From Candidatus Enterousia sp. (GTDB taxonomy: Bacteria; Pseudomonadota; Alphaproteobacteria; Rs-D84): 64,000 bases of DNA. The notes under the pieces were generated by a model. That model saw only the letters and a list, made by a program, of their open reading frames with translations. It was not told the origin of the DNA and did not search any database. This document shows positions 531-52,489 of this stretch, one piece after another. Numbering within the stretch: the stretch's first letter is position 1; the number at the start of each line of letters is the position of its first letter. The stretch lies in the NCBI GenBank assembly GCA_045643965.1, contig JAZRGB010000023.1, positions 12,137 through 76,136 of the forward strand. The letters run 5' to 3'. The position numbers were made by a program, and so were the translations under genes.

Positions 531-605
531 AATTTAGAATGATTTAGATAAAAGCAAATCGAGAATCGTTGTCATGAATTGCTGACACAGCCCGTGTTTA
601 GCGAA
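531..605. repeat. Degenerate/partial copy of the palindromic hairpin element family (E1a)
   Basis: Type-I left terminal repeat aatttagaatgatttagataaaa, then the arm caaatcgagaatc shared with copies at 33.8 kb and 52.0 kb. The loop is truncated (gttgtcatgaattg) and the right arm is not complementary. Confidence 0.5.
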
Positions 606-712
606 GAAATTAAAGATAATGGTATAGATAAACGGGTTGGAAATGGCGTAGTGTACAAAAGTTACATGAGCCATCGCCAACCCGCTTTAGATATACCATT
701 AGATTTAATTTA
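606..712. repeat. Palindromic hairpin element, type-II termini (E1b)
   Basis: Left terminus gaaattaaagataatggtatagata, stem cgggttggaaatggc / gccatcgccaacccg, core GTAGTGTACAAAAGTTACATGA at 648-669, right terminus tatataccattagatttaattt. The right end overlaps the ftsK stop codon (tta at 710-712). Confidence 0.7.
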
Positions 713-2953
713 CAGGATGTGACGTTTGTTATTGGCGTCCGGTGCAGACACAATACCATCTGCTTCCATACGTTCCATAAATCCAGCAGCCTTGTTATAA
801 CCAATTTGTAATCTGCGTTGGATATATGAAATAGTTGGCTTTTTATCACGCAAAACACATTCTTTGGCACGTGCATACAGGTCACCATCTTTGTCACCAG
901 TACCACCAAAACCGCCACCCATCATATCACCACCACCAGATTCTGCAGAATCTGTAACACCTTCGGCATATTCTGGTTCACCCTGGGTACGCAAGAAATC
1001 ACCAATACGTTTTAGTTCTTTGTCATCAATAAATGCACCATGGATACGAACTGGGACACGCCCTGCTTCGCTGAACAACATATCACCCATTGCTAATAAT
1101 TGTTCTGCACCACCTTCGCCAAGACATGTTACACTGTCGATACGGCTACGTGCCTGGAACGAAATACGTGTTGGGAAGTTCGCTTTGATAACACCTGTAA
1201 TTGTTGTTGCGTCTGGACGCTGGGTCGCCATAACCAAGTGGATACCGGCTGCACGTGCCTTTTGTGCAATACGCTGAACACACGCTTCTACGTCTTTACG
1301 TGCCAAACTCATCAAGTCTGCAACCTCGTCAATAATGATTACCATATATGGCATATCTGACAAATCGACTTCTTGTGTTTCGAACAACAATTCGCCCGTT
1401 TCTTCATCAGTTCCAACAGCAACTTGCTTGGTAATCTTTTCGCCACTTTCACGTTTTTGTGCAGCGATTTCATTATAACTTTCGATATTACGTGCATTAA
1501 GAACTTGCAGTTGTTTATATCTTTCTTCCATTTCACGCACAGCCCATTTCAACGCATTAACTGCTGGTTCTGGTTCCAACTTTACAATTGGTGTAATCAA
1601 GTGTGGAATATCATCCCAGAACCCAAAGTCAACACCCTTTGGGTCGATAATAATCAGTTTACATTTATCAGGGGTAAAATGATAAACAATAGATGTAATA
1701 ATGGATTGAACAAATACAGACTTACCAGATCCAGTACGCCCTGCAACCAACATGTGTGGCATCTTGGCCAAATCGAAATACATTGGATTTCCACCAATAT
1801 CAACACCCAACGCCAATGGTATTTTATATTTAGATTCTATGAACAAATCATCTTCCATCAATCCACGATAACGCACAGTCTGACGCTTTAGATTTACCAT
1901 TTCAACACCGATTAATTGTGTCTTTGGAATATGTGCGATACGGATACTTTCTGTTGCCATTGCACGCGTCATATCTGTTACAGTTTTGCTGACATCTGCC
2001 ATACGCGTACCTTCATCTGGCATAAATTCAAACAATGTTACAATTGGTCCAGGTTTAATACCGACAACCTTGCCATGAACACCATATTGTGAAAACTTTA
2101 CTTCCATACTGCGGGCAATTTGTTTTAATTCTGGTGTCACTGAATATTTGCTAAAATTAGACTTTTCCAAGAATCTTGTATCTGGCAATTCGTATGTATT
2201 TGCACGTGCAACACGTGTTTTTACAGCCGCCACAGCAGCAGCTTTTTTTACACTACGCTTCTTTGGGGTGGCTACTTTTTCTTCTTCCGCTTCTTCTTGC
2301 TCTATTTCTTCCTCAACTTCATCTTCTTCATCTGAATCATCAGTTTGTGGCACATACTTTGTTAAATGGAACGCAGACGCCAACCATAATGCCCAACGTT
2401 TTAAAACCTTTAGTCCCCAACGAACATGTTCCCATTTTATGTGTAGTAACATTCCACCCATAATACAAAAAACAACCACACATAAAACACCAACCAACAC
2501 AGCACCAACCAAACCAATCAAATACACAACATCAGCTGATACCACCGCACCAAACATACCACCGTATGTTGAACGTGGTGCAATTAAACCAAATCCAATT
2601 ACCCCCATGCACAGTGTAATAAATCCACGCAATAAATTATATTCCGGCAGATTTTCATATTCCAACCCCAGTATTTGCACAATTCCCCATCGTGCAATAC
2701 ACAAAAACAAAAACAGCCCAGGTATTACACCAAATGCATAACGCACCATACCAACCAAATACCCCATCACAGATTGGTCACCAAATGTACTGGATACGCC
2801 AAAGCCATCTAAATAAGAATTATAAAACAGCATTGCAAACACAGCCCACAATGCAACACCCAAGACACATACGCCAAATACACGTTGTGCCAAACTTTTT
2901 AATGCACCAGACACACGTTCCGGTAAAAAATTAGACTTTCTTTTCCCTGCCAT
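710..2953 (-). CDS. ftsK: DNA translocase FtsK
   Basis: ORF 710..2995. N-terminal TM helices and an acidic linker are followed by a C-terminal FtsK/SpoIIIE ATPase domain (GRTGSGKSVFVQSIITSIVY, Walker A) and a gamma-domain-like tail. Start chosen at MAGKRKSN (2953); the upstream ATG at 2995 is also possible. Confidence 0.9.
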   Translation of the reverse strand: MAGKRKSNFLPERVSGALKSLAQRVFGVCVLGVALWAVFAMLFYNSYLDGFGVSSTFGDQSVMGYLVGMVRYAFGVIPGLFLFLCIARWGIVQILGLEYENLPEYNLLRGFITLCMGVIGFGLIAPRSTYGGMFGAVVSADVVYLIGLVGAVLVGVLCVVVFCIMGGMLLHIKWEHVRWGLKVLKRWALWLASAFHLTKYVPQTDDSDEEDEVEEEIEQEEAEEEKVATPKKRSVKKAAAVAAVKTRVARANTYELPDTRFLEKSNFSKYSVTPELKQIARSMEVKFSQYGVHGKVVGIKPGPIVTLFEFMPDEGTRMADVSKTVTDMTRAMATESIRIAHIPKTQLIGVEMVNLKRQTVRYRGLMEDDLFIESKYKIPLALGVDIGGNPMYFDLAKMPHMLVAGRTGSGKSVFVQSIITSIVYHFTPDKCKLIIIDPKGVDFGFWDDIPHLITPIVKLEPEPAVNALKWAVREMEERYKQLQVLNARNIESYNEIAAQKRESGEKITKQVAVGTDEETGELLFETQEVDLSDMPYMVIIIDEVADLMSLARKDVEACVQRIAQKARAAGIHLVMATQRPDATTITGVIKANFPTRISFQARSRIDSVTCLGEGGAEQLLAMGDMLFSEAGRVPVRIHGAFIDDKELKRIGDFLRTQGEPEYAEGVTDSAESGGGDMMGGGFGGTGDKDGDLYARAKECVLRDKKPTISYIQRRLQIGYNKAAGFMERMEADGIVSAPDANNKRHIL

Positions 2954-3022
2954 AACGCTGGTTATTTTATCATAAAAAACACAAAAAAAACACACGATTT
3001 TTACACCGTCTGAAATTTATAT

Positions 3023-20089: not shown

Positions 20090-20117
20090 AAAATCCGCCA
20101 AACGGCGGATTTTTTTA
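20089..20117. terminator. Bidirectional Rho-independent terminator
   Basis: aaaaatccgccaaacggcggattttttt between typA and the convergent Cys-rich protein gene. Confidence 0.75.
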
Positions 20118-20128
20118 AATCATTTTAT

Positions 20129-21943: not shown

Positions 21944-22013
21944 ATTCCCTTCCTATTTATTCTATCCCTTTTATTTTATCATATTTTCATTATCCTTCCA
22001 AGAGATAAAAACA

Positions 22014-22044
22014 TAAAAAAATCCGCCATTTGGCGGTTCTTTTA
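22014..22044 (-). terminator. Rho-independent terminator downstream of dnaA
   Basis: ccgccatttggcgg hairpin with flanking A/T tracts, just 3' of the dnaA stop. Confidence 0.65.
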
Positions 22045-23319
22045 TTTATATTCTGAAATCATTTGTTGAATCTGGGCAGATAATACCAAATCACTGGCCA
22101 AGTGTTTTTCGATTTGTTTAATTGCATATAATACTGTTGCATGATCACGACCACCAACAAAATTACCAATTTCTGACAATGACAAGCCTGTTACATTTTT
22201 CAATACAACCATCATAATCTGACGTGCCAATACCAATGAACGACTGCGACCATTACCACATACAGCATCATATGATACAGCCAATTTTTCACACATTTCA
22301 CGAACCATCGCACTTGGTGTTTTTGTTTTTTGCAATGTATCTGCCAACAAGCGTTGTGCAATATCCATATCAACATTTGCACCCATCAAATCTGCATATG
22401 TTTTGATTTTTGTTGCAATACCAGCAACCAAGTGACCATCATTTGCAGTACGTTGTGACAATGCACTTGCAACATCCATTGCAACACCCGCACGTTGTAA
22501 CATAACTGTTTTTACATGTGCATTTGGTGCAGCAATATCAGCAGTCAAACCAGACGCAAACAAAGATTGAACACCGCGTTCAAAACCAGTCAAATTATTT
22601 GGTGCTGCATTTGCAGTCAAAACAACGTTTTTACCAGCATTACGCAAATCTACAACCAATTGTACAAATTCTTCGGTTGTTGCTTTTTTACCAGACAATG
22701 TTTGAACATCATCCAAAATAAATGTATCACAGTTACGGCAGAAATCTTTGAAAGCAAAAATATTATGTTCCTTTAAAGAACGTGTAAATTCAGATACAAA
22801 TTGTGCACCACTCATTTTTACAACGCGACCCTGTGATGCACCTGCGATGCAATCTGTTAACAATGTTTTACCACAACCAGATGCACCATAAATAAACAGC
22901 GGGGAAAAAGAAACTGCACCCGCTGCCACTTTTTTACATGCAGATACGACGAACAAATTTTCATCACTGCATACAAAAGAATCAAAAGAAACGTTTGTTG
23001 TTGCAGCAACCTTGGCAGGTGTGAAAACCTGAGTCTGATTGTCATTTGCAACTGTTGTTGCTTTTTGTGCAACGCCACAAACAACAATTTTAACATCCAA
23101 ACCAAATTCATTTGCAACAGACTTGATAACATTTGCATGCACACTGCTAATAAAATCAGCAGAAAATTGATTTTGTGCACCCAATACCAATGTATTACCT
23201 ACAACATCAAATTGTAATGGTAAAATCCAGGATTTATAACTTGCAGAATCGATTTTTGCGGCAATCCCCCCCTTGATATTTTCGATATTTATCATTGATG
23301 GTTTTGCCAGTGTCTGCAT
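22042..23319 (-). CDS. dnaA: Chromosomal replication initiator protein DnaA
   Basis: AAA+ motifs (PLFIYGASGCGKTLL), sensor and box motifs, and a C-terminal DNA-binding helix-turn-helix. Start chosen at MQTLAKPSM with a strong SD (aggag) 8 nt upstream; the ORF track extends 15 codons further. Confidence 0.92.
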   Translation of the reverse strand: MQTLAKPSMINIENIKGGIAAKIDSASYKSWILPLQFDVVGNTLVLGAQNQFSADFISSVHANVIKSVANEFGLDVKIVVCGVAQKATTVANDNQTQVFTPAKVAATTNVSFDSFVCSDENLFVVSACKKVAAGAVSFSPLFIYGASGCGKTLLTDCIAGASQGRVVKMSGAQFVSEFTRSLKEHNIFAFKDFCRNCDTFILDDVQTLSGKKATTEEFVQLVVDLRNAGKNVVLTANAAPNNLTGFERGVQSLFASGLTADIAAPNAHVKTVMLQRAGVAMDVASALSQRTANDGHLVAGIATKIKTYADLMGANVDMDIAQRLLADTLQKTKTPSAMVREMCEKLAVSYDAVCGNGRSRSLVLARQIMMVVLKNVTGLSLSEIGNFVGGRDHATVLYAIKQIEKHLASDLVLSAQIQQMISEYK

Positions 23320-26635: not shown

Positions 26636-26649
26636 TAAAATTCAGAATT

Positions 26650-26679
26650 AAAAAATCCCCCGATTGGGGGATTTTTTTT
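26650..26679 (+). terminator. Rho-independent terminator of rpsT
   Basis: aaaaatcccccgattgggggatttttttt. Confidence 0.8.
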
Positions 26680-26721
26680 AGTTCCTTGCAAATTTTTAAC
26701 AAAACGTGTAAATTATATGGT

Positions 26722-27570: not shown

Positions 27571-28415
27571 TAAAAAACAACCAAAAACTTAAACGCGTTG
27601 CAGTTATAACAATGGCCAGAAATGATGAATTTTTTCTGACCCGTTGGATTAAATATTATGGCGAACAATTTGGTTCAGAAAATCTGTATATCTATTTGGA
27701 TGGACTGGATAATAACACACCAGAAAATTCGGACAATGCACATATAACCAAACTGCCCCACCATGACATGTCACGAAGTGATGGCGACAAATATCGCATT
27801 GGTCTGATATCTGATTTAGCGAACAAATTATTAAAAGAATACGACATTGTTATTGGTTGCGACTGTGATGAATTTTTGGTTGTTGACCCAAATACAAATA
27901 TGACATTACACAAATATTTATCTCAGAAAAAATTCAACACCACATTGTCTGGAATTGGACTGGATGTTGGTCAGCATATGAAACACGAAAAAACACTGAA
28001 TAAATCAAAACCATTTTTATCCCAGCGTGCGTTTGCATTATTATCTACACGATACACAAAACCAGTCGTTATAAATCGTCCTGTACGTTGGGGTTCTGGC
28101 TTTCACCGCATAAAGAATCACAACTTTCATATCGACAAGAATTTATACCTGTTACACTTTGGTGCTGTTGATATGAAAATGCTGGAAACCAAGGCTGCCG
28201 CACGCGGCACAGACTGGTTAAATCATCTGCGTCGTCGCGGGAACGGAACAATTAACGATGTAACAAATCGCCCTGCCCGTGGTGAATTCTGGATAAAACT
28301 AGCACGCAAAATTCAGACTTACATTCGTGCACCATACGCAATTAATAAACCAAATATGCTGGGATTAAAAATTGTTGTAAAAATCCCAGAACGCTTAAAA
28401 AAATCAGGCGTTTAA
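27567..28415 (+). CDS. GT-A fold glycosyltransferase (family-2/92-like; DxD motif CDCDEF)
   Basis: N-terminal VAVITMARNDEFFL and DxD (GCDCDEF). It overlaps the upstream gene by 4 nt, indicating operonic arrangement. Confidence 0.45.
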   Translation: MIKNNQKLKRVAVITMARNDEFFLTRWIKYYGEQFGSENLYIYLDGLDNNTPENSDNAHITKLPHHDMSRSDGDKYRIGLISDLANKLLKEYDIVIGCDCDEFLVVDPNTNMTLHKYLSQKKFNTTLSGIGLDVGQHMKHEKTLNKSKPFLSQRAFALLSTRYTKPVVINRPVRWGSGFHRIKNHNFHIDKNLYLLHFGAVDMKMLETKAAARGTDWLNHLRRRGNGTINDVTNRPARGEFWIKLARKIQTYIRAPYAINKPNMLGLKIVVKIPERLKKSGV

Positions 28416-28444
28416 AAAATCCCTTTTCAGGGATTTTTTATTTT
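28414..28444. terminator. Bidirectional Rho-independent terminator
   Basis: aaaaaatcccttttcagggattttttatttt between convergent glycosyltransferase genes. Confidence 0.75.
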
Positions 28445-29448
28445 ATAAACTCTTCTATTCTGCCTTTATATTTCTTTGCACGCCCATTACAAGACACATC
28501 ACACACACCGGATTTATATAATTCGTCCACAGATTTTCGTGCAACATTAATATCTTTTTCTTCTGATAACCCCCGCACCTTTTGCATCATAGTAATTACA
28601 AAAGGCCACAAGAATTCACGATTAAAATGCTTAAATTCCCCAGCAATCGCTTTTTCTTTATATAAATTATATGAATAAATCAAACCGTGCACCAATGACT
28701 TAATCATAAATAAATCCTTGGCAGAATTTAAAGACGAAGTCGCATTTGGCATATAAAAATACAATGGCAACCGTAACATAACGGTCTTTGGCCGTGCCAA
28801 TAATATCGATACCCACCAAGGAAAATCTTCGATAATAATTCCACGTATAAATGGTGTTTTTTTAACCAAATCTGCACGATACAACGCCAACACAGGATAA
28901 CAATGTTTTCTGGTTGGACGTTTTACATGCCATGTTCTATTTTTTTCTGTTGCATGAAAAATAACATTTTTCAAAGAATATATGCGTTCATTTCCATATT
29001 TCTTATTTTTATTTTCCGGCAAAACATCTGTAATATCGACCCCTTGTAACATTTTTTTTCGCAGTCTATTATGAAATTTTACATCATGATCAAACATCAC
29101 CATATCTGCATTTTTTTGTTTTGCAGCATTATATGTTAATTCCAGTGTTTGCAAATGAATAAAATCATCACTGTCCAAAAACAATATATAATCACCAGTC
29201 GCATGTTGTACACCAATATTTCTGGCATCAGATTGTCCACCATTTTCTTTATGTATTACAACAAAGCGTTTATCACGTTTTGCATATTCGTCGGCGATTT
29301 CACCAGATTTATCTGGACTGCCATCATCGACACAAATCGCCTGCCAGTCTGTAAAAGTCTGATTTAATACACAATCCAAACATCTTCGCAGATATTTTTC
29401 AACATTATATATTGGTATAATTATTGAAATCTTTGGATTTTTTTTCAT
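28438..29448 (-). CDS. Glycosyltransferase family 2 (paralog A)
   Basis: ISIIIPIYNVEKYLRRCLDCVLNQTFTDWQAICVDDGSPDKSGEIADEYAKRDKRFVVIHKENGGQSDARN, the GT2 GT-A signature. Its N-terminal 100 aa are nearly identical to the adjacent paralog. Confidence 0.85.
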   Translation of the reverse strand: MKKNPKISIIIPIYNVEKYLRRCLDCVLNQTFTDWQAICVDDGSPDKSGEIADEYAKRDKRFVVIHKENGGQSDARNIGVQHATGDYILFLDSDDFIHLQTLELTYNAAKQKNADMVMFDHDVKFHNRLRKKMLQGVDITDVLPENKNKKYGNERIYSLKNVIFHATEKNRTWHVKRPTRKHCYPVLALYRADLVKKTPFIRGIIIEDFPWWVSILLARPKTVMLRLPLYFYMPNATSSLNSAKDLFMIKSLVHGLIYSYNLYKEKAIAGEFKHFNREFLWPFVITMMQKVRGLSEEKDINVARKSVDELYKSGVCDVSCNGRAKKYKGRIEEFIK

Positions 29449-29453
29449 ATTTA

Positions 29454-30467
29454 TTATCCTATGAAATTCACTATATCATCACGCAATTGTTCTGCCCATT
29501 TATATGGTGGATTTGATAACGCACCGATTTTATGCATTTCTATAAAGCATTGACGTGCATCGGCTAACTCTTCATCAGAACGTATATATTTTAACTTACG
29601 AAACGCCCACTTAATAAAGAACCATTTAAAGTTCTTGTTCCATTGTTCCATTTGATAATCTGTGGAATTTTCTTTATATGCAGAATACGCATCAATTATA
29701 CCTGTGCACAAACTTTTCATTATACGCAACTGTTTTGCACTTAATACAATTCCACCAAAATTTGGAATATAAAAATACAATGGTAACGGTGCAATTGTAA
29801 CACGCGGATTGCGTAACATAACCCTGCTCCACCATGGGAAATCTTCGAATAAAATCCCCTTGATAAAAGGAATATCTGCAATCAATTCACGTTTATACAA
29901 ATTTTTCCAAACCTGACAATGTTTTATCAACCAATGACGTTTTGGATTAAATTTATTGTGCGTACGTTCTGTTGCATATTCATAAACATCATCTGTTACA
30001 CGTGTTTTAATTTTATTCAGATTATATCTTTTATGAATCGCACGTGGCACAACATTATCCGTATCCAACCCCAGTTTATGACGCACCATTAATTGCGGGC
30101 GATATATTCTATCATATGTAAAAGATACAATATCAGACCCGTCACGCAACGCCAATGAATACGCAATTTCTAATGTTTGTGGGTGAATAAAATCATCACT
30201 GTCTATATACAAAATATAATCACCGGTTGCATGCGGCATACCAGCATTACGTGCATCGGACAAACCACCGTTTTCTTTATGAATAACCACAAAACGTTTA
30301 TCTCGTTTTGCATATTCTTCGGCGATTTCACCAGATTTATCTGGACTGCCATCATCGACACATATCGCCTGCCAATCTGTAAAAGTCTGATTTAATACAC
30401 TATCCAAGCATCTCCTCAGATATTTTTCAACACCATACATTGGAATAATTATTGAAATTGCAGGCAT
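29454..30467 (-). CDS. Glycosyltransferase family 2 (paralog B)
   Basis: ISIIIPMYGVEKYLRRCLDSVLNQTFTDWQAICVDDGSPDKSGEIAEEYAKRDKRFVVIHKENGGLSDARN, with a diverged C-terminal half. Confidence 0.85.
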   Translation of the reverse strand: MPAISIIIPMYGVEKYLRRCLDSVLNQTFTDWQAICVDDGSPDKSGEIAEEYAKRDKRFVVIHKENGGLSDARNAGMPHATGDYILYIDSDDFIHPQTLEIAYSLALRDGSDIVSFTYDRIYRPQLMVRHKLGLDTDNVVPRAIHKRYNLNKIKTRVTDDVYEYATERTHNKFNPKRHWLIKHCQVWKNLYKRELIADIPFIKGILFEDFPWWSRVMLRNPRVTIAPLPLYFYIPNFGGIVLSAKQLRIMKSLCTGIIDAYSAYKENSTDYQMEQWNKNFKWFFIKWAFRKLKYIRSDEELADARQCFIEMHKIGALSNPPYKWAEQLRDDIVNFIG

Positions 30468-33784: not shown

Positions 33785-33820
33785 AGCCTATGTATTATAT
33801 CATAAAAAAACACTAACCAC

Positions 33821-33910
33821 AAATTCATGATTAGTGAAAAAAGAAATCGGAAATCGTAGTGTACTTAACGCTACATAAGACTCCCGATTTGTTTTTAGAT
33901 GAATTATTAG
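33821..33910. repeat. Palindromic hairpin element (E2), type-I termini, degenerate left end
   Basis: aaattcatgattagtgaaaa | arm gaaatcggaaatc | core GTAGTGTACTTAACGCTACAT (33856-33876) | arm ctcccgattt | ttagatgaattattag. Confidence 0.65.
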
Positions 33911-33917
33911 CCAATAA

Positions 33918-34026
33918 ATAAAATAAATTAGAATGATTTAGATAAAAAGAAATCGGAAATCGTAGTGTACTTAACGCTACATGAGATTTCCGATTTATTT
34001 TTAGATGAATTATTATAATTTATTTT
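33918..34026. repeat. Palindromic hairpin element (E3), type-I termini, complete
   Basis: aaataaattagaatgatttagataaaaa | stem aaaaagaaatcggaaatc / gagatttccgatttattttt (18 bp) | core 33962-33983 | ttagatgaattattataatttatttt. The secB stop codon and its last two codons lie inside the right terminus. Confidence 0.75.
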
Positions 34027-35970: not shown

Positions 35971-36446
35971 CAAAACGCGTATTGGGCATTGACCCAGGAT
36001 TATTACACACAGGTTGGGCAGTTATTGATACTGCTGGTTCATCACGAAAATATATTGCCAGCGGTGTAATTTTACCAAATCCAAAAATGGAAATGGCCGA
36101 CAGACTTGTTACAATTTTTCGTGAAGTGACAAAACTGTGCGAAACGTTCGACCCCGATGAATGCAGTATTGAAATAACATTTGTAAATAAAAATCCAAAA
36201 ACAACTTTGATTCTGGGTCATGCACGTTCTGCTGCAATTGTCGCTGTTGCAAACAAGGATATTCCAATATTTGAATACGAACCAAACAAGATAAAAAAAG
36301 CCCTGACTGGTGCGGGACACGCCGACAAAAGTTCAGTTGATAAAATGGTTCAAATTTTACTGCCAACGGCCCACCCAAAAACCGCAGACGAAGCAGACGC
36401 AATCGCAATCGCCCTGTCACACACAAACATGATGCGTATATTCTAA
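35967..36446 (+). CDS. ruvC: Crossover junction endodeoxyribonuclease RuvC
   Basis: VLGIDPGLLHTGWAVI (catalytic Asp), …EADAIAIAL…, 159 aa. Confidence 0.9.
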   Translation: MTKRVLGIDPGLLHTGWAVIDTAGSSRKYIASGVILPNPKMEMADRLVTIFREVTKLCETFDPDECSIEITFVNKNPKTTLILGHARSAAIVAVANKDIPIFEYEPNKIKKALTGAGHADKSSVDKMVQILLPTAHPKTADEADAIAIALSHTNMMRIF

Positions 36447-37156
36447 CAGGATTTTATTCTACAATAATTTTCTATGATTTTATTTCTAAGATTTTCGTCT
36501 TTTACTTTTTGCTGGGTATATTTAAACATTTCTTGTTCTGTCTGTTTATCCATATTTTGCAACAGATGCAAAATTGTCCAAGACAGTCTGGCATCTATAT
36601 CATATTTTTCACGAAACAAAACCTGAAATTTTAACGCACGCGAAATTAGTGACGGTTCTTTATACAATGTTCCAATTTTATCGTTTACTATCAGATAATT
36701 TTCCAATTCTATTGTTTTATTTGATGTAAACGCATAAAACGGTGCAGCAGCAAAAATTTGCTGTGACCCGTTATGATAAAACAGAGAATTTACATTAAAA
36801 TCAAAATACTGACCAACTATTGCAGCAGGCCAATCAAATTCTTTATTAAAAATATCAACTTCTGGGAAATTTTTTAAACCTAACTTTATCCCACCAAAAG
36901 AATTTTCCTGTTTCCATAAAACATTTTGATTTTGTGATAAATCTGGTTTCTTTGACAATATTAAATCAATGTCTTTTGGGTCAAACTGTGTGTTTGTCAG
37001 TTCAGATAAAACAGCATCACGAACAAATCCGCCGACTGCAAAACATTCTGTACTTTTTGGCAAATTCAAATCATTAACAACACCGTCAACCAACGGGGCA
37101 ATTTTCTTGTCCGCCCGACGAATTACACTTTCAACATCTGCCAGATACCATCTCAT
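36443..37156 (-). CDS. Nucleotidyltransferase, CCA-adding/poly(A) polymerase head-domain family (short, 237 aa)
   Basis: Pol-beta-type NTase signature CFAVGGFVRDAVL...DIDLIL (GGxVRD...DxD). It lacks the usual about 150 aa C-terminal body of a canonical Cca. Confidence 0.55.
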   Translation of the reverse strand: MRWYLADVESVIRRADKKIAPLVDGVVNDLNLPKSTECFAVGGFVRDAVLSELTNTQFDPKDIDLILSKKPDLSQNQNVLWKQENSFGGIKLGLKNFPEVDIFNKEFDWPAAIVGQYFDFNVNSLFYHNGSQQIFAAAPFYAFTSNKTIELENYLIVNDKIGTLYKEPSLISRALKFQVLFREKYDIDARLSWTILHLLQNMDKQTEQEMFKYTQQKVKDENLRNKIIENYCRIKSC

Positions 37157-37177: not shown

Positions 37178-37287
37178 AAAAATAAATTAGAATGATTTAG
37201 ATGCGGAACGGTCCCGATGGTGTAGTGTACAAAAGTTACATGAGCCATCGGGACCGTCCACAGATGAATTATTATAATTTATTTTTA
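37178..37287. repeat. Palindromic hairpin element (E4), type-I termini
   Basis: aaaataaattagaatgatttagat | stem ggaacggtcccgatggt / gccatcgggaccgtcc | core GTAGTGTACAAAAGTTACATGA (37222-37243) | cagatgaattattataatttattttt. It abuts the yebC stop (cta 37288-90). Confidence 0.75.
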
Positions 37288-38004
37288 CTAGGCAGCGGCT
37301 GTGAACACCTTCTGCACATCATCATTTGCATCCAATGCATCAACCAATTTTTCCAGTTTTGCATATGCTTCGTCATCCAAATCCATTGGCATATTTGGCA
37401 ACCATGTCAGTTCTGCCTGTTCTGGTTCGCCCAAGATATCTGCCAAATATTTTTGTGCGGTTACAAAATCTTCTGGTTTTGTTGTGATGATAAAGCCTTC
37501 TTCGGATGTTTCTAGATTATCCGCATTTGCTTCCATAATAATTTCCATCATTTCATCTTCGGTTTTGCCGATTGATGCAGGATACATAATCTGACCTGCA
37601 CGTGTAAACATGAACACAACAGAACCTTCTTCGCCCATATTACCGCCATTTTTACCAAAGATATTACGAATTTCTGGCACAGTACGACGTGGATTGTCTG
37701 TCAATGCTTCAACAATAACAGGCACAGCACCTGGGCCATAACCTTCGTATCTAACTGCTTCGTAACTTTCTGTATTTGCACCAGACGCTTTTTCAATTGC
37801 ACGTTTGATATTATCGTTTGGCATTGAATTTTTGCGTGCTGTCAAAATAGCCAAGCGTAATCTTGGGTTATTATCTGGGTTTTTATCGCCCAACTTGGCA
37901 GCCATTGTGATTTCACGTGCCAATTTTGTAAACAAACCACTGCGTGCGGCATCGGCTGCACCTTTTTTATGTTGGATATTATGCCATTTACTGTGTCCAC
38001 TCAT
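37288..38004 (-). CDS. yebC: YebC/PmpR family transcriptional regulator
   Basis: MSGHSKWHNIQHKKGAADAARSGLFTKLAREI, the canonical YebC N-terminus. 238 aa. Confidence 0.9.
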   Translation of the reverse strand: MSGHSKWHNIQHKKGAADAARSGLFTKLAREITMAAKLGDKNPDNNPRLRLAILTARKNSMPNDNIKRAIEKASGANTESYEAVRYEGYGPGAVPVIVEALTDNPRRTVPEIRNIFGKNGGNMGEEGSVVFMFTRAGQIMYPASIGKTEDEMMEIIMEANADNLETSEEGFIITTKPEDFVTAQKYLADILGEPEQAELTWLPNMPMDLDDEAYAKLEKLVDALDANDDVQKVFTAAA

Positions 38005-38646: not shown

Positions 38647-38674
38647 AAAATGCCCCAGTGGGGCATTTTTTATT
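38646..38674. terminator. Bidirectional Rho-independent terminator
   Basis: aaaaatgccccagtggggcatttttt between ruvA and the convergent ABC transporter gene. Confidence 0.75.
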
Positions 38675-40466
38675 CACCAACAAAACCACCAGTTTGCATT
38701 TTCCACAACTTGCTGTATGCACCCCCAGAACGCAACAGTTGTGCATGTGTTCCAGATTCAACAATACGCCCCTTGTCCAAGACAATAATTCTGTCCATAT
38801 TACGCAATGTTGATAATCTGTGTGCAATTGCAATTGTTGTTTTACCACGCATCACGGTCTTTAATGATTTTTGTATCAGCAATTCATTTTCAGAATCCAA
38901 TGCAGATGTTGCTTCGTCCAAAATCAACACTGGTGAATCTTTTAATATTGCACGTGCAATTGCAATACGCTGACGCTGACCACCAGACAATTTAATACCA
39001 CGATTTCCAACCAATGTATTATATCCATCTGGTAAACCACTGATAAAATCGTGAATATTTGCCTTTTTGGCAGCCTTGATAACATCCATCTTGCTGGCAC
39101 TTGGACGTGCATATTTAATATTTTCCAACAGCGATCTATTAAACAAAACTGCTTCTTGTGGCACAAAAGATATATTCTTGTGCAAAGAATCCTGTTTAAC
39201 ATCACGAACATCATATCCATCAATTTTTATTGCACCAGATTTAACGTCGTATGCACGCAAAATCAAATTGACCAGCGTTGTTTTTCCTGCCCCAGACAAT
39301 CCAACAATACCGATTTTTTCACGTGGGCTAACATTTAAATCAAAATGTTTTATAACATCTTTTTTACCATAGTTAAATGACACATCATCAAATTCTATTT
39401 CACCATGAACATTTTTCAAACTCTTGGCACGTGATGCATCAACAATTGAACACGGCAAAATAATATCTGTATATGCATGAATTGCTTTTGTTTTTTCTTC
39501 ACTGTACGCAACCATAACTTCTATCAAAGAATCAAACGCCCTGGCAATTGAACGTCCTGCTGCAAAAACAAACATACCGTCAGCCAATGACATAGTGCCC
39601 ATTTTAATAAAATACCAACACATCAGAATCAAAGACAAACAAAGAGCAAACCACAATATTTGTGACGGTCTGTCTTGCATACGACGCAAGAATCCAATTT
39701 TATGATCCAGTTTTATTGATTCTTCTTGTTGATTCCAAATATATTTATTTTCATATTCGATATTACCAAACAGTTTTGCAGTCAATGCATTTCCCAAACT
39801 GTCTGTTCGAATACCTGAAATCTTTGCCCTGACATCTTGTGCTTTTTTTTGTTCAGCATTAATTTTACGTTGCCAAATAAATCGCCAACCTGTACGCAAG
39901 ACTGCTGCAACAACAATCATCAGTGCAATCCAAACATTTTGAAATAATACACCCACAGACAAAACCAACATACCCAGCACCAGTTTTATAACGCTTGTAT
40001 AAAATTCCAATGTCAACGAATTTAAACCGTTACAAACTGTTCCCATTTGACTGATTACCTGCCCCGAAGACCTGTTTATAAAAAAGTCTGTATCATTTTT
40101 ATAAACACGTTTATACAAAACAAAACTGGCATAGCGTGATATAATCGGCCGCCAATAATGATTCATATATTGCCTTATAAATCCAATCAGCATAATCGTC
40201 AGGTATATTCCTACAATCCACCAAACTTTTTGATTCCATTGTCCAACAACAGCACTTTCAAATATTTGAACTGCCCACTTATTTGTATATGGGAACGTCA
40301 CATTATCGAACATATAACCTGCAATTATTGTGATTCCTGCAACAATATAAAACAGCGGAAACCGTTTTATAACAGACCAATAAAATCCAAACACTGTCGC
40401 TGAAAAATCAGTTATATTTGCATTTTGTTGTTGCTCTTTGTTTTTATGAAAAATTTTACGAAACAT
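38670..40466 (-). CDS. ABC transporter, fused permease/ATP-binding protein (MsbA/multidrug exporter-like)
   Basis: 6-TM N-terminal domain plus NBD (GLSGAGKTTLVNLI Walker A, LSGGQRQRIAIARAIL signature, ILILDEATSALD Walker B). Confidence 0.85.
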   Translation of the reverse strand: MFRKIFHKNKEQQQNANITDFSATVFGFYWSVIKRFPLFYIVAGITIIAGYMFDNVTFPYTNKWAVQIFESAVVGQWNQKVWWIVGIYLTIMLIGFIRQYMNHYWRPIISRYASFVLYKRVYKNDTDFFINRSSGQVISQMGTVCNGLNSLTLEFYTSVIKLVLGMLVLSVGVLFQNVWIALMIVVAAVLRTGWRFIWQRKINAEQKKAQDVRAKISGIRTDSLGNALTAKLFGNIEYENKYIWNQQEESIKLDHKIGFLRRMQDRPSQILWFALCLSLILMCWYFIKMGTMSLADGMFVFAAGRSIARAFDSLIEVMVAYSEEKTKAIHAYTDIILPCSIVDASRAKSLKNVHGEIEFDDVSFNYGKKDVIKHFDLNVSPREKIGIVGLSGAGKTTLVNLILRAYDVKSGAIKIDGYDVRDVKQDSLHKNISFVPQEAVLFNRSLLENIKYARPSASKMDVIKAAKKANIHDFISGLPDGYNTLVGNRGIKLSGGQRQRIAIARAILKDSPVLILDEATSALDSENELLIQKSLKTVMRGKTTIAIAHRLSTLRNMDRIIVLDKGRIVESGTHAQLLRSGGAYSKLWKMQTGGFVGE

Positions 40467-40641: not shown

Positions 40642-41970
40642 ATGAACAATAACGATACAATCTTTGCATTATCAAGCGGACATGGAAAATCAGGTGTTTC
40701 AGTAATTCGTATTTCTGGCGAAAACTTATCTGATATATTTTCAACATTTATAAACAAATCAGATTTTACACCACGCCATGCATATTTTACAAATCTGCGT
40801 GATGAAACCGGTGATTTAATTGATCAGTGTTTGGCAATCTACTTTCCTGCCCCAAATTCTTTTACAGGCGAAGATGTTATCGAACTGCATACACACGGTG
40901 CACCTGCGGTTATAAATAAAGTCTTTGATTTTTTACAGACAAAAAATATGCGTATGGCAACACCTGGGGAATTTTCCAAACGTGCATTTTACAACAATAA
41001 AATGGACTTGGCCGACGTTGATGGACTGGCGGCACTGTTAGACGCCCAAACAGACATGCAACGCAAACACGCACTGCGTTCAATGATGGGTTCTGACAGT
41101 CGTGTATATAACGCATGGCGAAACAAAATGATAGAAGTGTCCGCATACGCCGCAGCAATTCTTGATTACAGCCCAGATGATTTACCTGCAAATATCTGTG
41201 ACACGGTTCGCACGCACGCAGAACAATTATTTGATGAAATCGGCAACGCATTATTACAATACAAAACCGCACGCAGTATTCGTGGTGGAATAAATGTTGT
41301 ACTGGCTGGTGAAACAAATGTTGGAAAATCATCAATCTTTAATTATATCGTTGGTTCAAATCGTGCAATTGTATCTGATATTGCCGGTACAACACGCGAT
41401 GTTGTGTCCGCCACCGTTGACATTGATGGATTTATGGTAAACCTGTCTGACACCGCGGGCATTCGTGAAACATCTGACACGATTGAAAGCATTGGTATTG
41501 AACGCACAATGTCTGAAATTGAAAACGCAGATATTGTTCTGAACGTTTATACCCCAAACAATGTTCCAGATTTTGAAACATTTGATTCGCGTATCGGTCC
41601 AAATCCAAACATTGATATTGTAAATAAATCAGACACAATTGATATTGATGATATAAACAAGCGTTATAACACAATATATGTATCTGCCAAGACAGGCGAT
41701 GGCATGGAACAGTTAATGGACACACTGCGTCACACAATCCATGAAATGTTTGACGGTGCAGAATCTGCCCTGTGTGTAAACGCACGCACAAAAACATTAT
41801 TGGAATCTGCACACAGCGAACTTGGGAACGCGATTGCATCTGGCGACAATTATGACATATTTGCAGAACACACACGTCGTGCTGCAGATGCGATTGGGAA
41901 AATACTTGGCACCATCACAGCGGCCGAAGTTATGGATATGACATTCGGACAACTGTGTCTGGGAAAATAA
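40642..41970 (+). CDS. mnmE: tRNA modification GTPase MnmE
   Basis: N-terminal TIFALSSGHGKSGVSVIRISG, G-domain GETNVGKSSIFN...DTAGIRE, and the C-terminal …CLGK tail. Confidence 0.92.
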   Translation: MNNNDTIFALSSGHGKSGVSVIRISGENLSDIFSTFINKSDFTPRHAYFTNLRDETGDLIDQCLAIYFPAPNSFTGEDVIELHTHGAPAVINKVFDFLQTKNMRMATPGEFSKRAFYNNKMDLADVDGLAALLDAQTDMQRKHALRSMMGSDSRVYNAWRNKMIEVSAYAAAILDYSPDDLPANICDTVRTHAEQLFDEIGNALLQYKTARSIRGGINVVLAGETNVGKSSIFNYIVGSNRAIVSDIAGTTRDVVSATVDIDGFMVNLSDTAGIRETSDTIESIGIERTMSEIENADIVLNVYTPNNVPDFETFDSRIGPNPNIDIVNKSDTIDIDDINKRYNTIYVSAKTGDGMEQLMDTLRHTIHEMFDGAESALCVNARTKTLLESAHSELGNAIASGDNYDIFAEHTRRAADAIGKILGTITAAEVMDMTFGQLCLGK

Positions 41971-41975
41971 AAAAC

Positions 41976-42004
41976 AAAAAAATCCCCAAAACGGGGAATT
42001 TTTT
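41976..42004 (+). terminator. Rho-independent terminator of mnmE
   Basis: aaaaaatccccaaaacggggaatttttt. Confidence 0.8.
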
Positions 42005-42006
42005 AT

Positions 42007-42110
42007 AAAATTAAAGATAATGATATAGATACGAACAACCCCGAAACCGTAGTGTACAGAAGTTACATGAGGTTTCGGGGTTGTTTGTAGATATGCCATT
42101 AGATTTAATT
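42007..42110. repeat. Palindromic hairpin element (E5), type-II termini
   Basis: aaaattaaagataatgatatagat | stem acgaacaaccccgaaacc / ggtttcggggttgtttgt (18 bp) | core GTAGTGTACAGAAGTTACATGA (42049-42070) | agatatgccattagatttaatt. It abuts the fadD-like stop (tta 42111-13). Confidence 0.75.
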
Positions 42111-43691
42111 TTACTCGTGACGGTCTGGGTATTTGCCCTCAATCAAATTCTTGCGAACCTGATGATGTTTTACCTTTTGCGTACCGGTTAATGGCAAATC
42201 TTCGGTTGTCATTGCATAGTGTGTAACCCACTTGTAACTTGCAACCTTTTTATTTGCAGCAGCAATTTCCGCACCCAGCTGTTCTAATGTCACACCTTCT
42301 TCAACACTGAACACACCGTATGTAACAGTTTTATCTTTTACAACATGTTCAAATACTGCGACATTTTTTACACCTGGGATTGTGATAAACATGCCTTCCA
42401 GTTCGTCTGGATAAACATTTTTACCACTATCTAAAACGATAACCTGCTTTTTACGACCTGCAAAATGCAATTCGCCGTTTTTATCCATTGTAACCATGTC
42501 ACCTGTATTAAAGAATCCACGTTCATCAAAGATTTCTTTGTTGGCTTCTTCGTTGTTCAAGTAACCACCAAACACCTGATGACCACGCAACCACAGAACA
42601 CCAACGCCATCTTCGTTTTTATCACGAATTTCGCATTCATTGTTCAATGTTGGTGCACCGAACGCAAATGGGAAACGTTTCTTTGTTGGTTTGGAAATAC
42701 AGATTGGTCCAACTGTTTCTGTCAAACCATAGCCCTGAATAAATGTCAGCCCCAAACGTTCATAGAATGTTTCAACTTCTGGTTTTGTTGCAGCACCACC
42801 TGCAATCAACAGACGTGCACGACCACCAAACACATCCAGAATTGGTTTCTGAACCTTACGTACCAAGAAGCCAAGACCGATTTTGTTCAACACTTTACCA
42901 TACTTTAATACAAAAGATACCAATCCCCATTTCTTTTGTGCCTTTACATTATCGATGATTTTATTACGGAAAACTTCCCATAATCTTGGTACCGCAGGGA
43001 TAACTTGTGGACGGAATTTCTTAAAGTCAGCCATAATTTCTTTTGGATTGATTGTTGGCTGCAACAGAACGCCCGCACCATAATGCAGCGTTGCCAAGAT
43101 TTCAACTGCAAAACCAAACACATGATACATTGGCAAGAAACCATACAGATAATCCCCTGGTTTAATCCATTCTGCCATTGATTCCAAAGAATTTGTACAT
43201 TCAACAATATTAAAGTGTGTTAATGGCACAACCTTTGGCACACCGGTTGATCCAGATGTAAATGACATTGTTGCGATATCCAAAGATTCAACATTTGCAG
43301 GTTTTAATTCTGGTTTAACCTTGCCGTCTTTTTTGGTTATATCATAGAATTTAAATTTGCTGGTCTTGTACACAAAAGACTTTTCTGCACAAACCATATG
43401 ACAGTTTGTAGTTGATGTCATATTATCATATTCAAATGGAGTCAGATTTGTATCCAACAATAACACTGTTCCACCCAAATACCAAATTGCAAACATTGTA
43501 ATTGGAAATTCTGGGATATTGTGTGCCAAGATACCAACCACATCACCTTTTTTAACACCGGCTGCATCCAACGATGCGGCACGTGCCTTTACCAAGTTAA
43601 TGAAATCTTTGTATTTAACGCCCTCGCGAACCAGATATAAATTGTCTGGCCATGTTTGTGCTGTGCGTTCCAGTAACTGATACATATTCAT
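42111..43691 (-). CDS. Long-chain-fatty-acid--CoA ligase (AMP-binding enzyme family)
   Basis: AMP-binding motif MSFTSGSTGVPKVV, and …GYGLTET… / …NTGDM… family motifs. 526 aa. Confidence 0.8.
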   Translation of the reverse strand: MNMYQLLERTAQTWPDNLYLVREGVKYKDFINLVKARAASLDAAGVKKGDVVGILAHNIPEFPITMFAIWYLGGTVLLLDTNLTPFEYDNMTSTTNCHMVCAEKSFVYKTSKFKFYDITKKDGKVKPELKPANVESLDIATMSFTSGSTGVPKVVPLTHFNIVECTNSLESMAEWIKPGDYLYGFLPMYHVFGFAVEILATLHYGAGVLLQPTINPKEIMADFKKFRPQVIPAVPRLWEVFRNKIIDNVKAQKKWGLVSFVLKYGKVLNKIGLGFLVRKVQKPILDVFGGRARLLIAGGAATKPEVETFYERLGLTFIQGYGLTETVGPICISKPTKKRFPFAFGAPTLNNECEIRDKNEDGVGVLWLRGHQVFGGYLNNEEANKEIFDERGFFNTGDMVTMDKNGELHFAGRKKQVIVLDSGKNVYPDELEGMFITIPGVKNVAVFEHVVKDKTVTYGVFSVEEGVTLEQLGAEIAAANKKVASYKWVTHYAMTTEDLPLTGTQKVKHHQVRKNLIEGKYPDRHE

Positions 43692-51445: not shown

Positions 51446-51475
51446 ACACACCTGCCCTATTAACATAATCACAGA

Positions 51476-51504
51476 AAAACCGACCATAAAGGTCGGTTTA
51501 TGTT
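51476..51504 (+). terminator. Rho-independent terminator of the peptidase E gene
   Basis: aaaaaccgaccataaaggtcggtttatgttt. Confidence 0.7.
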
Positions 51505-51522
51505 TCTGGTGGGAGTGGCTGG
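51503..51522. repeat. 20-bp direct repeat copy of the tRNA-Tyr-like 3' end (tttctggtgggagtggctgg)
   Basis: Identical 20-mer at 51503-51522 and 51746-51765. The second copy is the 3' acceptor/T-stem end of the minus-strand tRNA-Tyr-like gene. This is an att-site-like duplication. Confidence 0.7.
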
Positions 51523-51715: not shown

Positions 51716-51746
51716 ACAAAAAACACCCCAAACGGGGTGTTTTTTA
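51716..51746 (-). terminator. Rho-independent terminator downstream of the tRNA genes (also functional-looking on the plus strand)
   Basis: aaaaaacaccccaaacggggtgttttttatt. Confidence 0.7.
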
Positions 51747-51749
51747 TTT

Positions 51750-51825
51750 CTGGTGGGAGTGGCTGGATTCGAACCAGCTCAGGCTTAAGCCAACAGATTT
51801 ACAGTCTGCCCCGGCTCTCCAACTC
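51750..51825 (-). tRNA. tRNA-Tyr(GTA)-like gene, 3' two-thirds canonical, 5' acceptor/D-arm region not canonical (possibly truncated or pseudo)
   Basis: The minus-strand sequence reads …gcaga CTGTAAA tctgt | tggcttaagcc (long variable arm) | gctgg TTCGAAT ccagc | cactccc A CCA. The anticodon GTA, class-II variable arm and T-arm are canonical. Only about 17 nt precede the anticodon stem, too few for an acceptor strand plus D-arm. The candidate 5' strand ggagttg pairs imperfectly with the 3' strand. Confidence 0.45.
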
Positions 51826-51999: not shown

Positions 52000-52107
52000 G
52001 AAATTAAAGATAATGATTTAGATAAAAACAAATCGGGAATCGTAGTGTACAAACGCTACATGAATTGACCGGTACTGCTTTTAGATAAATTATTATCGGC
52101 AATTTTT
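52000..52107. repeat. Palindromic hairpin element (E6), type-II left terminus, degenerate (non-complementary right arm)
   Basis: gaaattaaagataatgatttagataaaa | arm acaaatcgggaatc | core GTAGTGTACAAACGCTACATGAATTG (52042-52067) | accggtactg | cttttagataaattattatcggcaattttt. Confidence 0.6.
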
Positions 52108-52109
52108 TA

Positions 52110-52213
52110 GAAATAAATTAGAATAGTTTAGATAAAAGTAGTGCCGGCAATGTAGTGTACAGACGCTACATAAATTGCCGGCACCGCTTTTAGATAAATT
52201 ATTATAATTTATT
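52110..52213. repeat. Palindromic hairpin element (E7), type-I termini
   Basis: gaaataaattagaatagtttagataaaa | stem gtagtgccggcaat / attgccggcaccgc | core GTAGTGTACAGACGCTACATAAAT (52152-52175) | ttttagataaattattataatttatttt. It abuts the stop codon (tta 52214-16) of the small Cys-rich gene. Confidence 0.75.
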
Positions 52214-52489
52214 TTATTTGATTGGCGGGAAACAATCACCCCCACTCTCTGGACAACAGTTATATCCTAAATCACCCATGTTGGTATAAACTTCACCAAC
52301 ACAACAACCATTTTTATCTGGTGTTGTGCCATCAAGACATTTCAACGATGGACCAAATGAAAACATATCAATATTTGCATATACTAAAATACCAAACATT
52401 GCACCCAACACAAAAGAAACAACCAAGGAAACCCATGATGTTGTTTTACTTGTTTTTTTCATTGTTGATTTTTTTGTAACTTTTTTCAT
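52214..52489 (-). CDS. Small membrane-anchored protein with a C-terminal 7-Cys module (paralog of 52503..53060)
   Basis: A basic N-terminus plus TM helix (WVSLVVSFVLGAMFGILVYA), then CLDGTTPDKNGCCVGEVYTNMGDLGYNCCPESGGDCFPPIK. The motif is shared with the neighbouring gene. Confidence 0.6.
   Translation of the reverse strand: MKKVTKKSTMKKTSKTTSWVSLVVSFVLGAMFGILVYANIDMFSFGPSLKCLDGTTPDKNGCCVGEVYTNMGDLGYNCCPESGGDCFPPIK

Follow-up and report, generated by a model that had tools for sequence, protein, structure and literature searches.

What are the palindromic hairpins that recur between the genes of Candidatus Enterousia, and what decides where they lie? The question is raised by a stretch of 64,000 nucleotides from assembly GCA_045643965.1 (contig JAZRGB010000023.1, positions 12,137 to 76,136 of the forward strand; the whole stretch is called the window here), in which a preliminary description made from the letters alone had reported an undescribed family of ~105-bp palindromic elements with eight copies at five loci. 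Enterousia belongs to the uncultured alphaproteobacterial order Rs-D84, whose genomes are 0.75 to 1.0 Mb long and ~90% coding (PMC12306168). Repeats of the REP, REPIN, Correia, and RPE (Rickettsia palindromic element) kinds are common, yet their choice of site and their role in the host are debated, and the Enterousia elements offer an unusually clean case: a genome streamlined to ~0.9 Mb, in which junk would not be expected to survive, and two sharp rules, docking on TAA stop codons and placement on the leading strand in one orientation. Our analysis confirms the observation and supports its reading as a lineage-specific, non-coding, ~106-nt palindromic repeat family of Candidatus Enterousia that is apparently undescribed. 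By architecture the family belongs with elements of the REP, REPIN, and miniature inverted-repeat transposable element (MITE) type, and it lies outside the strict definitions of REP, MITE, RPE, attC, and any Rfam family; its stop-codon docking and replication polarity are new relative to those families as described. We put at roughly 0.55 the probability that these are REP/REPIN/MITE-like, replication-polar elements that are spread and turned over by a strand-specific process on single-stranded DNA (ssDNA) and co-transcribed in 3′ untranslated regions (3′ UTRs).

A genome search for further copies bears out the existence of a family. An exact-pattern scan for GTAGTGTAC-N2/3-AMGYTACATRA across 185,579 species genomes returned at least 119 stretches, every one of them from Ca. 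Enterousia or from an uncultured alphaproteobacterial or unnamed gut metagenome-assembled genome (MAG). Together with strain contigs, the stretches listed hold 198 copies (182 distinct) in 126 sequences that sum to 935 kb. Counts over the 198 copies refer throughout to these listed matches and strain contigs (cited below by their L numbers), which cover only a small part of each genome; the loci were collected because they bear elements, and occupancy fractions are therefore biased upwards. The same exact-pattern scan gave 0 matches in viral contigs, and blastn with one element found no match in 72,556 plasmids. On the window, the Rfam gathering score was reached by two tRNAs only, and at E ≤ 10 the best sub-threshold matches to the element were long-hairpin miRNA or 3′-UTR models, at 14 to 25 bits against cutoffs of 50 to 211. 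The terminal-repeat strings occur in no searchable paper, the core 9-mer GTAGTGTAC is found there only in unrelated contexts (primers, virus termini), and the papers that mention Enterousia make no mention of repeats. With no match in Rfam, viral contigs, plasmids, or the searchable literature, the family is apparently undescribed.

The anatomy of the element emerges from an alignment of 97 full copies. Imperfect terminal inverted repeats of 24 nt come as type I (AAATAAATTAGAATGATTTAGAT ... TAGATGAATTATTATAATTTATTT), type II (AAATTAAAGATAATGGTATAGAT ... TAGATATGCCATTAGATTTAATTT), and hybrids of these. Both arms carry an invariant AGAT, and the facing copies form a 5′-GA/3′-AG tandem G·A mismatch between invariant A-T pairs. 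The variable stem is 13 to 19 bp long, with compensatory double changes at all 13 pairs and at most four pair types per column, and the stems of different loci and species share ~15 recurring modular classes. At the top lies an invariant apex, GTAGTGTAC-N6/7-TACAT, that is, GTAG-TGTAC-(A/T)..(CGC/AGT)-TACAT-(G/A)A, in which GTAG stands 0 nt 5′ of a mini-helix of 4 to 6 bp (TGTA..TACA or GTAGTG..CGCTAC). The invariant columns of the alignment are the apex and the AGAT of both arms, and the invariant apex and the G·A motif point to a specific protein partner. The preliminary description was correct in its two terminal-repeat flavors, its complementary stem of 12 to 18 bp, and its conserved loop (20 to 22 nt), to which the hybrid terminal repeats must be added; the repeated unit usually extends ~20 nt farther leftward, into a conserved linker and small-hairpin module.

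Several measures show that the palindromic hairpin is real. Over 43 pairs, 91.5% of alignment cells can pair, compared with 75.3% after shuffling and 36 to 48% with slid partners; compensatory double changes occur in 30 of the 43 pairs, and the covariation score is 0.46 versus 0.17 in shuffles. For full copies, the fold of either strand is far more stable than that of shuffled sequence (DNA z-scores, −7.8 to −11.3). The better folder is the GTAGTGTAC strand, by ~10 kcal/mol with RNA parameters (119 of 122 elements) and by 1 to 8 kcal/mol with DNA parameters, because of G·T wobbles in the type I repeats and the tandem G·A pairs. Mismatches inside the variable stem, counted with the strand of selection in view, are balanced (A·C, 72; G·T, 56). 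The elements are non-coding, as first reported: ATG-TAA or ATG-TAG start-stop pairs are the only reading frames inside them, on which ground a peptide-coding role was rejected, and arrays of elements contain no open reading frames (ORFs). A CRISPR-like array was likewise rejected, given that the stems fall into ~15 recurring classes and are not unique spacers, and inspection by eye for CtrA, IHF, or CcrM sites gave no consistent match. The reverse complement of the commonest apex (ATGTAGCGTTTGTACACTAC, e.g., window 33962-33982) contains TAGCGT, which we take to be the CS-6 loop motif of the ssoA single-strand origins of rolling-circle plasmids, a likeness that could be coincidence. The same may be true of the start-stop pair (ATG-TAG or ATG-TAA) that the apex reverse complement also holds.

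Placement follows the genes. For 181 of the 198 copies, the opposite strand has a converging ORF (80 codons or more) whose end lies shortly past the loop on its right, and the left side of the 198 copies shows no comparable stop-codon peak. The distance from stop to loop is 37 to 47 nt for a solo unit or the last unit of an array, with inner units one or two unit lengths farther away; the stop is 12 to 23 nt from the invariant AGAT, which puts it within the right terminal repeat or at its border. All five loci in the window obey this rule (ftsK, 710; secB, 34020; yebC, 37288; acyl-CoA ligase, 42111; 91-aa ORF, 52214). Docked genes end in TAA in 78 cases (91%), TAG in 8, and TGA in 0, while the corresponding numbers at unoccupied leading-strand ends are 320, 59, and 56. 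Orthologous proteins have the same C-terminus whether the site is occupied or empty, which means that the element comes after the native stop codon and leaves the gene untruncated. A convergent gene is faced by 64% of occupied ends versus 29% of unoccupied leading-strand ends, and where a convergent intergenic region is occupied (50 cases), it is the leading-strand gene on which the element docks.

Placement also follows replication. Using greedy gene calls at loci with |GC skew| above 0.08, we found 99 of 530 gene ends occupied on the G-rich (leading) strand versus 0 of 322 on the other strand. Read along the GTAGTGTAC strand, 112 of 113 loci have a negative GC skew (mean, −0.178), and the skew is still negative (mean, −0.10; 81% of genes) over genes that have the GTAGTGTAC strand as their sense strand, and thus the polarity reflects replication, not the coding strand. 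The GTAGTGTAC strand is the leading-strand template, and the mRNA-sense strand, its reverse complement, is the lagging-strand template. Loops lie on both strands in only 1 of the 126 sequences. Flipping of the apical loop relative to the terminal repeats and the gene is confined to 2 of the 198 copies (L098, 5060-5140; L108, ~5713-5810), in palindromes that are otherwise normal; elsewhere loop orientation is kept, though the inverted flanking arms of ~40 bp could flip the loop by recombination. The resulting head-to-head pair in L098 was considered as a replication terminus and rejected; the GC skew does not switch there, and the pair is a loop inversion inside a palindrome.

Within the window, the exact 9-mer GTAGTGTAC has seven matches, all on the + strand (648, 33856, 33962, 37222, 42049, 52042, and 52152), where simple arithmetic leads one to expect ~0.5 exact matches by chance over both strands of 64 kb. 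A covariance model made from 97 copies from other genomes, run on the window with filters off, detects seven copies, again all on the + strand, with E values of 1e-7 to 1e-26 (Table 1). Direct reading confirmed the sequences at all the positions reported in the preliminary description, and the five loci stand; the count becomes seven copies plus one remnant, because the unit at 531-605 has no covariance-model match at E ≤ 1 and reads by eye as a decayed unit. The claim that each copy has the same architecture holds for most of them, an exception being the chimera at 52000-52106, whose left arm is of the 'aaatcgggaatc' class and its right arm of the 'attgccggcac' class, so that the arms do not pair. 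Hairpin elements make up about 1.3% of the window. The flanking genes identified are ftsK, secB, yebC, mnmE, ruvA/C, dciA, and recA (FtsK is the ORF 710..2995 on the − strand), a set that points to a proteobacterium. The window shares 98 to 99% identity with metagenome contigs L001-L004 and ~88% with the nearest species-representative MAGs, which carry the label Candidatus Enterousia. The small hairpin at 33811..33836 lies beyond the two-unit array downstream of secB, in gene direction, and bears the repeated linker motif CGCTAATCAYG, which also follows most units in other genomes.

Table 1. Hairpin units and adjoining terminators in the window (window coordinates; basis of each assignment in the last column)
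Feature	Position	Strand	Basis and remarks
Decayed internal unit	531..605	+	Left terminal repeat GAAATTTAGAATGATTTAGAT and left arm AAAAGCAAATCGAGAATCG retained; most of the loop deleted; then linker CCCGTGTTTAGCGAAG; read directly, repeat families D7/D8
Full element, type II terminal repeats	606..712	+	95.4 bits, E 3.8e-23; right end overlaps the ftsK stop (TTA 710-712 = TAA on the − strand)
Terminator-like small hairpin	33811..33836	−	CACTAATCATGAATTTGTGGTTAGTG then T7; terminator scan
Partial unit without most of the left terminal repeat; first of a tandem pair	33821..33910	+	Covariance model 33827-33907, model positions 14-93, 36 bits
Full element, type I	33918..34026	+	Covariance model 33920-34026, 91.6 bits, E 4.1e-22; secB stop 34020-34022 inside the right terminal repeat
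Full element, type I	37178..37287	+	Covariance model 37179-37285, 105.1 bits, E 8.2e-26; ends 1 nt short of the yebC stop 37288-37290
Bidirectional intrinsic terminator of mnmE, canonical	41975..42004	.	Adjoins the left end of the next element; terminator scan, repeat family D4
Full element, type II	42007..42112	+	107.7 bits, E 1.6e-26; right end docked on the stop of the acyl-CoA/AMP-ligase gene 42111..43691(−)
Chimeric unit, type II-like left repeat; first of a tandem pair	52000..52106	+	69.2 bits, E 5.9e-16
Full element, type I	52110..52215	+	106.2 bits, E 4e-26; docked on the stop of the 91-aa Cys-rich ORF 52214..52489(−)

Many sites are tandem arrays in which only the gene-adjacent unit is complete. 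Inner units retain the left repeat, the left arm, and a perfect loop, followed by 4 to 12 nt of the right arm and then the repeated linker; in gene direction the linker is a small hairpin module, (A/C)CGCTAATCRYG... or CCNNNGCAAGGGGTTGGG, and at array ends a T-run often follows it (e.g., window 33836-33811). Chimeric units that join the left arm of one class to the right arm of another occur at window 52000-52106 and in L011, L031, and L039, with the apex as the exchange point. An alignment of seven strains at the yebC site shows type II elements in other strains of the species at the position where the window has type I; L005 and L006, which have identical flanks, carry type I and type II, respectively. 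Unit number also depends on the strain, L004 having one unit at the secB site versus the tandem pair of the window. The same gene ends are occupied in different species (yebC, 13/15; ftsK, 9/10; secB, 8/10; AMP-ligase, 10/14; fractions biased upwards, these loci having been chosen as element-bearing), and at the same site different species have different stem classes. No target-site duplication of 5 nt or more was detected: the longest word common to both junctions averaged 4.90, against 4.69 ± 0.09 in re-paired controls, and duplications of 2 to 3 nt are unresolvable in this A/T-rich context. An apparent 7-nt duplication at orthologous sites in L051 and L092 (ATAAAAT or GTAAAAT) was dropped, showing no excess over re-paired flanks.

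Other rearrangements were also noted. A five-unit array at L078 3900-4385 contains a 178-nt tandem duplication comprising one truncated type II and one full type I unit, and arrays therefore also grow by ordinary tandem duplication. In L001 (~10780-10900, − strand) and at the same site in L003, the loop has been lost by deletion between the GTAGTG of the left arm (AAGTAGTGCC) and that of the apex, a slippage route of unit decay. Beside the yebC element, a 237-aa ORF (window 36443-37156, − strand) with a weak, sub-threshold match to a PolyA_pol/nucleotidyltransferase head varies among strains: L001 and L003 lack it, and in its place L006 has a 239-aa ORF that is clearly homologous and L005 a 269-aa ORF. 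An ABC transporter gene between ruvA and mnmE (38670-40466, − strand) is absent in L001, L003, and L006.

The elements occupy terminator territory. Of 36 truly empty orthologous sites, 17 have a canonical intrinsic terminator immediately behind the stop; such a terminator follows ~23% of unoccupied gene ends generally and 14% of arrays. The AMP-ligase gene ends in a plain terminator, with no element, in other species (L014, L071), and at some sites (window 41975-42004, L001, L051) a terminator is kept beyond the element. These data support an exchange of terminators and elements at orthologous sites, a case weakened by the small terminator-like hairpin that most units have after them. Canonical terminators combine a GC-rich stem, a loop of 3 to 8 nt, and an adjoining U-tract; the small hairpin beyond the element fits this form at some sites (e.g., 33836-33811), and the long hairpin does not. 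The latter makes a poor intrinsic terminator, because its loop measures 20 to 22 nt and its lower stem is AU-rich and, in the mRNA sense, contains mismatches. The yebC element lies 22 nt upstream of the next start codon, which suggests a position inside an operon. Canonical bidirectional terminators, built of an A-tract, a GC hairpin (e.g., TCCGCC..GGCGGA), and a T-tract, directly follow stops in the window at 20075-20118, 22003-22046, 26637-26680, 28399-28442, and 41964-42007; for the gene ends at 20129 and 22042, other Enterousia species have a hairpin element instead of a terminator at the orthologous positions.

Three further features of the window were recorded alongside the elements. Next to tRNA-Tyr (51751-51837, − strand) and tRNA-Gly (51844-51918, − strand), ~20 nt matching the tRNA-Tyr 3′ end (TTTCTGGTGGGAGTGGCTGG), preceded by a terminator-like hairpin, are duplicated 244 bp apart (51475-51522 and 51719-51766), and the duplication looks like the remnant of an attachment-site duplication from integration or excision. 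Two adjacent glycosyltransferase family 2 genes at 28438-30467, in a polysaccharide cluster (Caps_synth, RgpF), are tandem paralogues with 84% identity over 300 nt (29131-29430 versus 30159-30458). The adjacent small proteins encoded at 52214-52489 and 52503-53060 (− strand) share N-terminal signal or transmembrane segments and a Cys-rich C-terminal motif, CC.GE...CCP..G..CFPPI[KE]; they form an unannotated paralogous family, one member of which is docked by an element.

The repeats are thus structured and restricted to one lineage, and they display stop docking, replication polarity, apex exchange, and turnover at the strain level; their mobility is what we infer from this distribution. In the reading that we favor, elements would spread and turn over through a strand-specific process on ssDNA at the replication fork, one similar to REPIN/RAYT or to the 'peel and paste' of IS200/IS605 and leaving no target-site duplication. 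Entry would be favored in the TAA/A-rich stretch that separates stop codon from terminator. Halves would be swapped between copies at the invariant apex, giving chimeric arms, truncated array units, and type swaps at a fixed site. Co-transcribed as 3′-UTR hairpins, the elements would probably act on mRNA 3′-end stability or termination, and it may be because of such an effect on mRNA 3′ ends that occupied sites persist across species. An ssDNA mechanism of the HUH/Y1 type is proposed because no target-site duplication was detected, the hairpin is compensated, the apex is tagged by GTAG, and the polarity is near-absolute, a set of traits to which systems such as REPIN/RAYT and IS200/IS605 give rise (PMC3116915; PMC6006769). 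Y1 enzymes act on the lagging-strand template (PMC6006769), and docking and polarity would hold together because the mRNA-sense strand of a leading-strand gene is at once the transcription non-template strand and the lagging-strand template.

Several results weigh against this reading. Neither E. coli RayT (NC_000913) nor an IS608 TnpA sequence produced a tblastn match better than E = 0.5 across the 935 kb, which cover only a small part of each genome, and when ten of the window's small or unannotated ORFs were scanned with Pfam, no transposase or recombinase domain came to light. In the 935 kb, no gene is flanked by inverted elements (the one locus with opposed elements has no gene between them), and no orphan pair of left and right terminal repeats encloses an ORF as an autonomous parent would. 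We found no clean recent insertion opposite an empty site within one species, and the strain swaps could reflect ordinary homologous recombination between strains or copies. Moreover, the better-folding GTAGTGTAC strand lies on the leading-strand template, a strand that the IS200/IS605 model does not expect to be single-stranded, and the GTAG-adjacent mini-helix has 4 to 6 bp versus the 7 to 20 bp of REP basal stems. A bolder form of the proposal, which we consider rather unlikely, has a candidate strand-specific enzyme read the GTAG mini-hairpin apex and the tandem G·A on folded ssDNA and insert or exchange hairpins at the stops of co-directional genes; in a variant, the family would be a domesticated polar signal of the chromosome or of 3′ ends. 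If true, this would be a replication-coupled, stop-codon-docking mobile hairpin unlike the described REPIN, IS200, or MITE systems.

Much of the same evidence can be read without mobility. The elements may be selected 3′-end modules, in which the long hairpin, the small hairpin, and the U-run together serve as a terminator or mRNA-stabilizing structure that spreads by gene conversion without a dedicated enzyme, an explanation that we retain as a tentative possibility and that could be reconciled with the favored reading if the module is a domesticated element. Stop-codon docking is what such a module would show, and the occupation of the same gene ends across species (yebC, ftsK, secB, AMP-ligase), the terminators at 17/36 empty orthologous sites (versus ~23% generally and 14% after arrays), the enrichment of occupied ends before convergent genes, and the small hairpins with T-runs that close the arrays all speak for it; the conserved terminal repeats and apex would also supply enough homology for conversion to produce chimeras and type swaps. 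Yet function at the RNA level alone gives no reason for 0/322 lagging-strand ends and leaves the invariant 20-nt apex and the tandem G·A motif unexplained. The mRNA-sense strand is the weaker folder, the long hairpin terminates poorly by intrinsic criteria, and the yebC element, which has the next start codon 22 nt beyond it, probably sits within an operon; truncated array units that are unable to fold still have perfect loops. The polarity would be accounted for by a signal of replication or chromosome architecture, that is, a polar site for a host protein (KOPS- or Chi-like, a primosome or single-strand initiation site, or a fork or topology element) whose orientation is under selection. Besides the skew polarity at 112/113 loci and the absence of copies from lagging-strand gene ends, this explanation draws on the invariant features of single-strand type (tandem G·A, apex), on a loop orientation that is kept despite 40-bp inverted arms (2/198 flipped), on G-rich linker motifs (GCAAGGGGTTGGG) on the leading strand, and, tentatively, on TAGCGT in the apex reverse complement as a putative CS-6 motif. 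We nevertheless judge it improbable: it leaves stop-codon docking and the TAA bias unexplained, the spacing is irregular, tandem and truncated arrays look like by-products, no partner protein was identified, and a 106-nt hairpin acting in this way is, to our knowledge, without precedent.

Folded single strands are also the substrate in integrons, and attC-type sites, at which a tyrosine recombinase would move adjacent genes as cassettes, share with the elements a position directly after the stop, a fixed orientation, and a better-folding strand that runs antisense to the gene and belongs to the leading-strand template; in sedentary chromosomal integrons, the bottom strands of attC are arranged in this way. 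Further likenesses are the conserved ends, the conserved unpaired bases, and a center that varies but is compensated, and strain-variable genes adjoin the yebC element. However, the 97-sequence alignment has no RYYYAAC/GTTRRRY core sites, no integrase was seen, arrays carry no ORFs, and the variable ORF beside yebC has no element of its own; attC loops vary, but the apex here is invariant. The docked genes (ftsK, secB, yebC, acyl-CoA ligase) are housekeeping genes in conserved synteny, and this gene content already largely refutes an explanation that we regard as highly improbable. Equally little probability attaches to multi-copy genes for small or antisense RNAs made from the GTAGTGTAC strand, with the conserved apex as a seed: that strand is the better folder, with G·U pairs, and structured RNAs typically combine variable stems with a conserved loop, yet promoter-like sites are at background (39 versus 35 ± 6 expected), with none associated with the elements, and no terminator lies on the GTAGTGTAC strand. 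This idea would further entail roughly 100 copies per 0.9-Mb genome, leaves the replication polarity unexplained, and has no Rfam match behind it.

Should a protein partner of the apex be found, the family could show how ssDNA elements read the polarity of transcription and replication and how portable hairpins replace terminators. In gut metagenomes, the conserved apex serves to mark Ca. Enterousia specifically, and the repeats probably help to fragment Enterousia MAG assemblies.

The preliminary description likened the elements to REP, MITE, and RPE repeats, and REPINs indeed come closest in architecture; RPE-like in-frame insertion and target-site duplications were not found, nor was a parent insertion sequence (IS) in the 935 kb. 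Integron attC sites resemble the Enterousia element as imperfect palindromes right after a stop, in fixed orientation, with conserved ends, a variable paired center, and strand-specific folding, but here there are no core sites and no integrase was seen, the neighbors are housekeeping genes, and the apex is invariant in place of the variable attC terminal loop. RPEs, known for in-frame insertion inside protein-coding genes, are likewise palindromic repeats of ~100 to 150 bp that persist in a reduced alphaproteobacterial genome; the Enterousia element always follows the stop and leaves C-termini unchanged, and it is by insertion behavior that the two are set apart. Correia elements of Neisseria, ERIC, RUP, BOX, Bru-RS, and RIME are MITE-like intergenic repeats of 100 to 150 bp that are co-transcribed as long RNA hairpins and can carry or replace terminators. 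The Enterousia family shares with these and other MITE-like repeats a size of 100 to 150 bp, terminal inverted repeats, lack of coding capacity, and high copy number; it differs in that neither a TA nor any other target-site duplication was detected and no parent IS of matching ends was found in the 935 kb, and those families are characterized neither by fixed orientation nor by docking on stop codons. With IS200/IS605 and their miniature derivatives (PATEs), it has in common the lack of target-site duplication, hairpin-dependent recognition, and an orientation tied to the lagging-strand template. There, however, each end has a separate subterminal hairpin and insertion is 3′ of a defined tetra- or pentanucleotide, whereas here one long hairpin spans the element, its better-folding strand is on the leading-strand template, and no tnpA-like match was found in the part of each genome searched.

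REPINs have conserved inverted ends and a less conserved spacer, form a hairpin in ssDNA or RNA, and commonly show compensatory changes (PMC3116915). The REPIN/REP-BIME system of RAYT, a Y1 HUH enzyme, thus matches the Enterousia family in its non-coding unit of ~100 nt, inverted conserved ends, compensated and less conserved spacer, and whole-unit hairpin, and also in its many copies, several sequence classes per genome, clusters and mosaics, lack of target-site duplication, and vertical persistence in a lineage. A REP is defined by GTAG or GTGG 0 to 2 nt 5′ of a hairpin whose basal stem has 7 to 20 fully paired nt (PMC6006769); GTAG immediately 5′ of a hairpin is a shared feature, except that here it abuts the apical mini-helix. 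The Enterousia element differs in that its ends are without GTAG-tagged REP hairpins, its sole GTAG is apical, and its apex is invariant. REPs and REPINs go with a cognate RAYT gene, usually in single copy and often with repeats on both sides, and the 935 kb yielded no RayT match better than E = 0.5. Finally, REPINs are described as randomly distributed in extragenic space (PMC3116915), whereas the Enterousia elements are docked on stop codons and ~99% replication-polar.

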